64,000 bases of DNA from Escherichia phage WG01 (NC_031928.1), one strand, 5' to 3'. Counted from the stretch's first letter, positions 35,989 to 37,506 are shown. The notes: a model not told the origin generated them from the letters alone. Numbers and translations: made by a program.

Positions 35989-36453
35989 TTATTTGATTTG
36001 TTTAGCAGACCAGATACGGTCTTTGATGATTTTCTGAATATCTTCAACATACTCTAAGTCGTGAGCATGTGGATTATCTTTGAAGCTATGTGCTCGTGCC
36101 AGTTTCTGGCCTTCTGTTTTGATTACTAAAAGCTCTTTAAGAATTGCTTCATACTTAGAAATAATTCCTTTGGCGATATTTTTTTCTTGAGCGGCTTTAG
36201 GGTCCGCTTTTGACGCAGGTGCTTTACCTGTAGCTTTCTGGAACAATTCACCTGATGCAGCTAGGCTTTTAAAAACTCGGCTAACAGTATTGGCATTAGT
36301 AAAACCTTCGGCTTTAAAATCTTTAATAAAACGGAAACGTTCTTCATCAGAGGCGTCTTTGTAAGAATATTTACCTGCTTGAATTGCTGCAATCGCAGCG
36401 GCTTTTACATCTGAACTAGATTGTTCAGTCAAAAATTCATTGTAAGTTTTCAT
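35989..36453 (-). CDS. internal-protein-like packaged protein (CTS-tagged, 154 aa)
   Basis: N-terminus [10 protein letters not shown]; late promoter ~27 nt upstream. Confidence 0.6.
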   Translation of the reverse strand: MKTYNEFLTEQSSSDVKAAAIAAIQAGKYSYKDASDEERFRFIKDFKAEGFTNANTVSRVFKSLAASGELFQKATGKAPASKADPKAAQEKNIAKGIISKYEAILKELLVIKTEGQKLARAHSFKDNPHAHDLEYVEDIQKIIKDRIWSAKQIK

Positions 36454-36479
36454 ATTATTTCCTAAGTTAGTTTACTACA

Positions 36480-36487
36480 TATTTATA
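36480..36487 (-). promoter_or_regulatory. late promoter TATAAATA
   Basis: exact TATAAATA on the minus strand ~27 nt upstream of the ATG at 36453. Confidence 0.55.
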
Positions 36488-36488
36488 C

Positions 36489-36518
36489 AAAAAAAGCCCA
36501 ACCTTTCGGAAGGGCCTT
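36489..36518 (-). terminator. rho-independent terminator ending the tRNA/stable-RNA transcript
   Basis: same hairpin as 35356..35384 (GNRA loop) followed by T7. Confidence 0.55.
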
Positions 36519-36559
36519 TAACCTAGGGTAACCTTGTCGGGGTTCCACCTGCTAGGCAA

Positions 36560-36898
36560 GTGTTTGTACGAAACGCCGGGATTCGAACCCGGTTATTAAG
36601 TAGTTGACGCCACTCAATATTTTTAAAAGGCCATATCTCGACCATATCCGAACGTTCCGTCAAAAACGCTACTCGGCTTACGGCAAAGATATTTCCTCGA
36701 ATCGATAATTCGGTGCGCCGTTTCTGCTGTGATGTAAGGGGACGTTAACAGATCGTAAAGATTTGTTAATGCCAGTCCTTACTCAGGGAACATCAGTCCG
36801 ACGACTTACCGGTAGCGACCCGGTTTCTTGTTTGTTGCGCCGGTGAATGCTGGTAATCAGTCTTCATACGACGGCTTGACTATATAATAGTCTTCATT
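36560..36898 (-). ncRNA. candidate stable RNA(s) downstream of the tRNAs
   Basis: ~340 bp with no ORF of 60 aa or more; minus-strand T-arm-like hairpin CCGGG-TTCGAAT-CCCGG at ~36575-36595; no full cloverleaf found by eye. Confidence 0.25.
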
Positions 36899-36973
36899 TG
36901 GTATCCCGCCCTGGGATCGAACCAGGACCGCAAACTTAGAAGGATCGTATGCTATCCATTACACCAGCGGGAC
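36899..36973 (-). tRNA. tRNA-Arg (anticodon TCT)
   Basis: minus strand cloverleaf with anticodon loop CTTCTAA, T-loop GGTTCGATCC and encoded CCA. Confidence 0.8.
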
Positions 36974-36978
36974 GTAGT

Positions 36979-37055
36979 TGGTGACCCAGACCAGATTTGA
37001 ACTGGTAACCTTTCCCTTATGAGGGGACTGCTGCTAACCATTGAGCTACAGGGCC
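36979..37055 (-). tRNA. tRNA with CAT anticodon (Met or lysidine-type Ile)
   Basis: minus strand GGCCCTGTAGCTCAATGGTTAGCAGCAGTCCCCTCATAAGGGAAAGG...GTTCAAATC...CCA. Confidence 0.7.
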
Positions 37056-37060
37056 TTAAA

Positions 37061-37327
37061 TCAAACTACAAATCCAGCAGGAGCATTATCATCTTTAGCC
37101 ATGTGCTGAATTGTATGATAAGTCATTTCTTCAGGAGCAACCAGATAAGCCGCAGCGTTAACTAGTGGAATTATTTTTGGTTTAGCGAATGTGCTATCGG
37201 CAATTGCCATAAAGGGCTCGCCGTCGGTCTCAACTTCACCAAATTGACATTCATACGAAATAGAACAACGTTTGGTAGTGGTTGTCTTGGTTGCCGGGTC
37301 ATAAAAAGCTAATTTTAATACTAACAT
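37061..37327 (-). CDS. hypothetical protein (88 aa)
   Basis: ORF track start is GTG; ATG at 37327 with GAGGTG RBS. Confidence 0.4.
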   Translation of the reverse strand: MLVLKLAFYDPATKTTTTKRCSISYECQFGEVETDGEPFMAIADSTFAKPKIIPLVNAAAYLVAPEEMTYHTIQHMAKDDNAPAGFVV

Positions 37328-37506
37328 AAACACCTCAAATAAAATTAAGTAAAGTAAGTTTGATTAATAGACCTTGTCTATTATGAAAGGTTCTTTGAGG
37401 GAAGAACCTTTGGTAATAGAGGGTTACTTAATAATGTTAGAGTAATAATAACACATTACTCTTAAAGCATATTACTATTTTTAGGAATAGTCTGGTCAAA
37501 TTTGAT

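Follow-up and report, generated by a model that had tools for sequence, protein, structure and literature searches.

The closest described relatives of the RNAs studied here are the two stable RNAs of phage T4, rnaC (species 1 RNA) and rnaD (species 2 RNA). In T4, the tRNA cluster and the species I and II RNAs are made as one primary transcript of ~1.75 kb that ends past the species I gene (PMC2330249). RNAC has been seen by northern blot during T4 infection (PMC9697503), and both RNAs are classed as late-accumulating RNAs of unknown function (PMC9697503; PMC3014915). Our literature search found no functional study of either rnaC or rnaD. The T4 genome record (NC_000866) annotates tRNA-Arg, a 1-nt gap, rnaD (119 nt; 71053-71171), a 6-nt gap and rnaC (139 nt; 70908-71046).

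We analyzed a 64,000-nt stretch of Escherichia phage WG01 (NC_031928.1), which we call the window. A sequence-only reading of the window had proposed a reduced tRNA cluster followed by ~340 bp of noncoding DNA that could encode stable RNAs analogous to T4 RNA C/D, degenerate tRNAs or a novel ncRNA. Reading 5' to 3' on the minus strand, we found a tRNA with anticodon CAU, a tRNA-Arg(UCU), about 400 nt without a credible gene, and a hairpin followed by U7. The stretch after the tRNAs is noncoding, as had been proposed; however, it is longer than estimated, with ~400 nt between the end of tRNA-Arg at 36899 and the U tract at 36489. The features of the locus are these:

36489-37055, minus strand: tRNA and stable-RNA operon, ending in a terminator
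36979..37055, minus strand: tRNA with anticodon CAU, T4 tRNA-Ile type, CCA encoded (ARAGORN; Rfam RF00005, 53.9 bits)
36899..36973, minus strand: tRNA-Arg(UCU), CCA encoded (ARAGORN; Rfam, 48.8 bits)
36833..36898, minus strand: 66-nt spacer from tRNA-Arg to rnaD, missing from T4, GiZh and fPS-90 (alignment)
36878-36892: palindrome GACTATATAATAGTC, hairpin-forming, inside the spacer
36859-36867 and 36889-36897: direct repeat ATGAAGACT (minus-strand reading), inside the spacer
36712..36832, minus strand: predicted rnaD (species 2 RNA) ortholog, 86% identical to T4 rnaD
36706..36711, minus strand: 6-nt linker GAAUUA from rnaD to rnaC (T4 annotations)
36567..36705, minus strand: predicted rnaC (species 1 RNA) ortholog, 139 nt (NC_000866 boundaries; 36568-36704 by X03016)
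36698-36704 with 36569-36575: acceptor-like stem of rnaC, CGAUUCG/CGUUUCG, 7 bp
36576-36592: T arm of rnaC, CCGGG-UUCGAAU-CCCGG
36658-36663 and 36604-36609: complementary loops of rnaC, UUGACG and CGUCAA
36517..36566, minus strand: 3' trailer CAAACACUUGCC..., kept in relatives without rnaC (alignment with IME08 and MN01; fold)
36489..36516, minus strand: intrinsic-terminator-like hairpin GGCCCUUCC-GAAA-GGUUGGGCU with U7, the end of the operon (fold)

When we compared the 431 nt that lie 3' of tRNA-Arg with other phage genomes, we found 100% identity to Escherichia phage QL01 (a Dhakavirus) and, from position 77 onward, 88-95% identity to several hundred Tequatrovirus genomes, in which the matched segment is tRNA-Arg/rnaD/rnaC/terminator. 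The QL01 record bears no annotation in this segment, while the GiZh and fPS-90 records mark the terminator and GiZh also marks rnaC. By alignment, the gene order tRNA-Arg, rnaD, rnaC, terminator is the same as in the annotated T4, GiZh and fPS-90 loci. Window rnaC is identical to T4 rnaC at 137 of 139 positions (nhmmer E = 1.2e-47) and shares its place after rnaD and before the terminator, its length and its predicted fold; one of the two substitutions turns an A-U pair in a 9-bp hairpin into G·U. Window rnaD has the same invariant ends as T4 rnaD and the same order after tRNA-Arg, and several positions of its central hairpin are changed with the fold kept. From sequence comparison, it is almost certain that the noncoding stretch contains orthologs of T4 rnaD and rnaC. 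The RNA C/D option of the earlier reading therefore holds in a stronger form, as true orthologs in the T4 gene order go beyond analogs, and a novel ncRNA is ruled out, since T4 work of the 1970s-80s had already described both genes, which are annotated in NC_000866, X03016 and AJ880101. Neither rnaC nor rnaD matches any family in Rfam 15. The two genes are ordinary for T4-like phages and already known biology, and the annotation result is routine in that it adds rnaD and rnaC to the QL01 record. As a whole, 36489-37055 is probably a T4-like tRNA operon cut to two tRNAs, which are followed by the 66-nt spacer, the rnaD and rnaC orthologs and a terminator, with products that would mature like tRNAs and with rnaC as possibly a tRNA mimic; we grade the separate parts of this reading below.

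Both tRNA genes are those of T4: the CAU tRNA is identical to T4 tRNA-Ile at 74 of 74 positions, and tRNA-Arg(UCU), which reads AGA, is identical to T4 tRNA-Arg at 75 of 75. ARAGORN labels the former Met, which is the usual mislabel of a CAU tRNA-Ile given the 74/74 match. ARAGORN and Rfam agree on these two minus-strand tRNAs and find no other in the 64-kb window, so that the reduced cluster (Arg-tct and cat) read from the sequence is borne out. The tRNA finders and Rfam, which had been suggested as a check, call no complete tRNA between 36500 and 36898. ARAGORN finds no tRNA there and no Rfam family reaches threshold, including in a permissive-threshold scan of 36400-37100 whose only credible matches are the two tRNAs; the best Rfam match in 36500-36898, to tRNA-Sec, has 16.6 bits where the gathering score is 47. 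In GiZh and fPS-90, which are Tequatroviruses, the tRNA-Arg(UCU) at the same position is clearly different in sequence. Since the window tRNAs are T4's and those tRNA-Arg genes are different, the tRNA region looks mosaic, as if exchanged between genera; in T4, SegB homing drives the inheritance of the tRNA region (PMC2330249). A minus-strand 90-aa ORF (37061-37333; QL01_138, hypothetical) stops 5 nt short of the first tRNA and sits where T4 carries its first tRNA subcluster.

Between tRNA-Arg and rnaD, T4 has a gap of 1 nt, whereas the window has the 66-nt lineage-specific spacer. With blastn, we found the spacer in 25 phage records and no others, at 95% identity or more; those examined are Dhakavirus relatives, and the spacer thus appears to be specific to a Dhakavirus subgroup. 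Its fold has an energy of -16.4 kcal/mol (z = -3.2 relative to shuffles). The palindrome noticed in the sequence-only reading is present; as a T4 late promoter it was rejected, as it does not equal TATAAATA. Both copies of the direct repeat noticed there are also present; however, the repeat is only weakly beyond chance because this 9-mer occurs four times on the minus strand of the 64-kb window, twice outside the spacer. We also rejected the idea that the spacer is a truncated duplicate of rnaD, since the local alignment score was matched by 251 of 2000 shuffles. The spacer may simply lengthen the rnaD leader. It alters the precursor and leaves the homology of rnaD unaffected, and because it separates rnaD from tRNA-Arg, the 5' end of rnaD is uncertain in the window.

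At the other end of the operon, the terminator that had been called strong is present by fold as a hairpin with U7. However, its stem (36495-36516) is interrupted in this phage by a 2x2 U·U internal loop, whereas the T4 counterpart is a perfect stem, and because of this loop the hairpin is missed by a simple terminator pattern scan. The homologous terminator site is annotated in GiZh, fPS-90 and X03016. A scan of 36300-37500 found no sigma-70 promoters. The T4 late-promoter consensus TATAAATA occurs on the minus strand at 36480-36487, immediately 3' of the U tract of the terminator, and a 154-aa ORF (35989-36453) has its ATG ~27 nt downstream of this consensus.

To define the fold of rnaC, we aligned homologs from a phage collection, viral contigs and metagenomes. 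A loose pattern gave 93 matches in the viral contigs, of which 20 were true and ~73 were chance matches; a stricter pattern gave 10 matches in the metagenomes, all of them in lineages already sampled, and the diversity amounts to about six lineages. The 25 distinct rnaC sequences come from Tequatro-, Dhaka-, Moon-, Karam- and Kanagawaviruses and from kv_tblp8-like Klebsiella phages, and every one of them is 138-141 nt long. With these 25 sequences, RNAalifold predicts a four-way junction. The molecule is closed by a 7-bp acceptor-like stem that contains two invariant U·U pairs (alignment columns 2-8 with 135-141); there follow a long arm of ~70 nt with several helices (columns 9-80), an A-rich linker, the 9-bp hairpin (columns 91-116) and, in the 3' part, a 5-bp T stem with the loop UUCGAAU. 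Standard pairs make up 98.6% of the pair cells; in controls with the partners slid by 1-3 columns, the share is 36-49%. Double changes are present in 23 of the 39 pairs, and the observed covariation score was reached by none of 500 shuffles. The acceptor stem, for instance, switches between CGAUUCG/CGUUUCG and CGGUUCG/CGUUCCG, and the third pair of the T stem is G-C, U-A or A-U. The loops are invariant and the stems variable. Window rnaC folds alike on its own (-49.9 kcal/mol, z = -4.25). The T-arm-like hairpin that had been picked out by eye is thus present as the T arm of rnaC, and the remainder of rnaC departs from the tRNA plan, which is why no cloverleaf could be built around it; the covariation analysis proposed at that time, carried out on the 25 homologs, supports a tRNA-like four-way junction. 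Taken together, these comparisons indicate that rnaC is a conserved, covariation-supported RNA with a predicted four-way junction, a tRNA-type acceptor stem and a T arm.

The alignment also points to two candidate tertiary contacts. The loops UUGACG and CGUCAA, which could form a 6-bp loop-loop helix, are complementary in 25 of 25 sequences, and in the kv_tblp8 lineage (4 sequences) they change jointly to UUGGCG and CGCCAA, which replaces an A-U pair with G-C. The GG (36631-36632) of an otherwise invariant UGGCC sits at the place of D-loop G18/G19, and UGGCC may make an elbow contact with the T loop. UGGCC becomes UCGCC only in the Kanagawavirus sequences, where UGCAUGC replaces UUCGAAU as the T loop of an otherwise conserved rnaC; this replacement would be accounted for by a compensated tertiary contact or else by incipient decay in that lineage. 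Because each of the two contacts rests on one lineage, we regard them as leads and not as proofs.

The ends of rnaC also resemble those of a tRNA. In X03016, T4 species 1 RNA (137 nt) extends from the first C of the acceptor stem as far as the discriminator U, and ...ACCA is the end of species 2 RNA. With these boundaries, the first base of window rnaC is C36704, which puts U36705 at position -1, as in an RNase P site; the base at position -1 is U in 21 of the 25 homologs and A in the other 4. After the rnaC stem, U-CCA-A is encoded in kv_tblp8-like phages, as compared to U-ACA-A in the others. Trimming to the discriminator followed by addition of CCA is the established route for T4 tRNAs that have no encoded CCA. 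Species I RNA was reportedly sequenced in the 1970s as a 140-nt molecule, which would fit 137 nt plus CCA. From the X03016 boundaries, the base at position -1, the CCA encoded in the kv_tblp8 lineage, the single T4 primary transcript and the place of rnaC among tRNA genes in Karamvirus (see below), we infer that rnaC would mature like a tRNA. The operon would give one precursor from which all the tRNAs, rnaD and rnaC would be cut out by the host tRNA-processing machinery. RNase P would cleave 5' of C36704, the base that opens the rnaC acceptor stem, and the 3' end would be trimmed to the discriminator U36568 before CCA is added. We consider this route through the tRNA-processing enzymes fairly likely; a CCA end on rnaC is likely as well, given the annotation boundaries and the one lineage that encodes CCA.

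What rnaC would do once matured is a more tentative matter. rnaC offers the acceptor/T-arm half of a tRNA but no free anticodon loop: the 6-nt hairpin loop CGUCAA appears to be paired to the tip of the long arm, and rnaC would for that reason be unable to decode. On these grounds we suggest that rnaC may be a tRNA mimic, a reading of our own that we put forward as a possibility. As a mimic, rnaC would engage a protein that reads the acceptor/T-arm half of tRNA, and would act as a decoy, sponge or cofactor. Two observations count against this reading. The Kanagawaviruses have lost the canonical T loop, which weakens models of strict tRNA mimicry, and rnaC is dispensable, as it is deleted in close relatives and replaced by an ORF in Gaprivervirus.

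rnaD differs from rnaC in structure and distribution. Window rnaD combines a 5' hairpin, ACCGG-GUCGCUA-CCGGU (36808-36824), with a long irregular stem; GUCGUCG closes this stem by pairing with the 3'-end CGGCG-C-AC, and the RNA ends in ...GCGCACC. In an alignment of 23 distinct sequences, ~40 nt at the 5' end and ~25 nt at the 3' end are invariant, and both invariant blocks of the window are identical to those of T4. In the consensus structure (RNAalifold, pair counts), pairing holds for 98.6% of the cells, and double changes occur in 5 of 22 pairs; the 5' hairpin has an A-U to G-C covariation, and the closing helix is without any variation. The minimum free energy of window rnaD is -35.9 kcal/mol (z = -2.85). 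The support for the modeled structure of rnaD is real, and more modest than that for rnaC. Between the invariant ends, the central hairpin (36735-36790 in the window) is present as three unrelated sequence types that form a mosaic across genera, and the window carries the hairpin called 'type i'. IME341 carries the spacer of this window yet has a T2-type rnaD hairpin, and the types cross genus boundaries. This pattern suggests that the central hairpin is a swappable module, and we model rnaD as a distinct rod-like RNA with invariant ends around that hairpin. Only Tequatro-, Dhaka- and Gapriverviruses were found to carry rnaD.

At its 3' end, window rnaD reads ...CACC-G as compared to ...CACC-A in T4, and it is therefore without the encoded terminal A of CCA. 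Near this end, GAAACG (36717-36722) is a perfect complement of CGUUUC (36570-36575), on the 3' side of the rnaC acceptor stem, and this stem takes its A-U form only in lineages that also bear rnaD. An alternative pairing of GAAACG with CGUUUC in the precursor is possible.

The three unrelated hairpin types between invariant ends would also fit a different function, in which the two RNAs are trans-acting sRNAs that base-pair with host or phage mRNAs and the central hairpin of rnaD is the targeting module. The RNAs have been termed 'small regulatory RNAs' (PMC9697503), and a convergent rnaD SNP arose in every line when a T4-like phage was adapted to one E. coli host (PMC12685909), a finding that fits this alternative and hints at a host-specific function without giving a mechanism. 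However, there is no known target, no trans-acting regulatory sRNA has been characterized in T4 (PMC3014915), and rnaC is almost wholly paired internally, with both conserved loops included. We consider a base-pairing sRNA function unlikely.

The presence and absence of the two genes among relatives bears on whether they act only as parts of the precursor. In IME08, CLB_P2, vB_EcoM_005 and IME341, rnaD is kept and rnaC is cleanly excised, with a deletion junction that joins ...GCGCACC to GAACACUUGCC...; vB_EcoM_005 and IME341 have the same 66-nt spacer as the window. In Gapriverviruses (MN01, P896), a 384-nt ORF replaces rnaC. The 3' trailer and the terminator are retained wherever rnaC is gone (IME08, vB_EcoM_005, IME341, CLB_P2 and the Gapriverviruses). 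Karam-, Moon- and Kanagawaviruses have rnaC without rnaD, and in Karamvirus rnaC lies between tRNA-Trp and tRNA-Gly with spacers of a few nt, like a tRNA gene. In these comparisons, rnaC and rnaD behave as independent, dispensable modules. If both acted in cis only, as structured 3' modules that guard or organize the tRNA precursor and leave stable fragments as by-products, their position at the 3' end of the operon before the terminator in Tequatro-, Dhaka- and Gapriverviruses would be accounted for, as would the loss of rnaC without loss of the tRNAs. However, the Karamvirus rnaC is in the middle of a tRNA array and not at its 3' end, the loops and both U·U pairs stay the same from genus to genus, more than a mere barrier would need, and T4 infection leads to the accumulation of RNAC as a discrete species (PMC9697503). 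A role in cis only is quite unlikely.

Tools and records also place a tRNA inside rnaC. ARAGORN calls a 95-96-nt Phe-gaa or Met-cat 'tRNA' in rnaC of Karamvirus-like phages (L006, 1547-1642; L009, 1547-1641), and the GenBank record of SonariX holds a 95-nt tRNA-Met annotation in its rnaC homolog. We rejected an internal tRNA of 93-96 nt (the tRNA-Sec match in the window; the ARAGORN calls in Entb_43 and SonariX), as its acceptor pairing is not conserved. In KM16, KaAlpha, Kosakonia 305 and kv_tblp8, the two strands CGGAACG and CGUUUCG either anti-covary or do not form the pairing, in contrast to the covarying terminal stem. The same ARAGORN calls and the weak Rfam tRNA-Sec match, along with the canonical T arm and the acceptor-like stem, could be taken to mean that the region holds functionless pseudogenes, the decayed remnants of lost T4 tRNA genes. 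Against this, the length of rnaC is fixed across genera, compensatory changes are seen in more than half of its pairs with nearly all pair cells paired, invariant loops lie between variable stems, the internal 'tRNA' relies on the non-conserved pairing, and T4, with all eight of its tRNAs, has the same two genes. Decay is thus largely refuted by the covariation and is highly improbable; the degenerate tRNAs of the sequence-only reading are ruled out because rnaC shows many compensatory changes, as expected under strong structural selection.

The earlier statement that the region has no ORF needs qualification. A mechanical search gives a 46-aa TTG ORF (36523-36663), which owes its existence solely to an A-to-G change: T4 and GiZh have a TAG here that the window has lost. 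The same change turns A-U into G·U in the 9-bp hairpin of rnaC. However, no stop-free frame is common to all 25 rnaC homologs on either strand, so that no ORF is conserved. Many GenBank records have 'hypothetical protein' CDSs over rnaC/rnaD. That the region encodes small proteins is hardly credible: the 46-aa ORF and the hypothetical proteins annotated under the match in dozens of records speak for it, but T4 and GiZh have the closing TAG, every frame is interrupted in at least one of the 25 homologs, and the substitutions pair within stems and do not follow codon periodicity. The 'hypothetical protein' and '95-nt tRNA' calls over rnaC/rnaD in related records are probable errors.

We return to the mimic reading, which can be extended to a model of both RNAs. 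Speculatively, rnaC might be a tRNA-derived, CCA-ended RNA in which a large insertion at the D-loop position pairs with the loop at the anticodon position, so that the acceptor/T-arm half alone is left accessible, and might serve as a dedicated decoy or cofactor for an enzyme that reads this half, with rnaD as a second, host-specific module; we think this full model doubtful. We know of no earlier description of a decoy or cofactor role for rnaC or of a host-specific role for rnaD. If the decoy/cofactor reading is true, the target could be, for example, a host tRNA-targeting defense nuclease or a toxin that modifies acceptor ends. T4 RNA C and D have gone ~50 years without an assigned function, and the comparative model provides concrete targets for mutation: the four-way junction, the two invariant U·U pairs, the contact between the loops, the probable CCA end and the modular gain and loss of the genes.

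In common with tRNA (RF00005), rnaC has an acceptor-type stem (7 bp) stacked on a T stem (5 bp) with the loop UUCGAAU, both stems showing covariation, and it also shares with tRNA a discriminator base, a four-way junction and a location in tRNA arrays. In contrast to tRNA, rnaC is 139 nt long, has two invariant U·U pairs in its acceptor stem and a ~70-nt arm at the position of the D arm, is without a free 7-nt anticodon loop (the sole candidate is the 6-nt CGUCAA), and is not called as a cloverleaf by ARAGORN or RF00005. tmRNA also combines an acceptor/T-arm minihelix with a long helix that replaces the anticodon arm, is non-decoding and is matured by tRNA enzymes. By its predicted fold, rnaC resembles the tRNA-like domain of tmRNA in having an acceptor/T-arm minihelix and a long helix and in being non-decoding; however, rnaC is without the tag reading frame, the pseudoknot ring and the G3·U70 alanine identity pair of tmRNA, and ARAGORN finds no tmRNA in the 64-kb window. 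Taken together, homology, synteny, length and fold make this locus a member of the T4 rnaC and rnaD gene families; it is neither a canonical tRNA nor a tmRNA.
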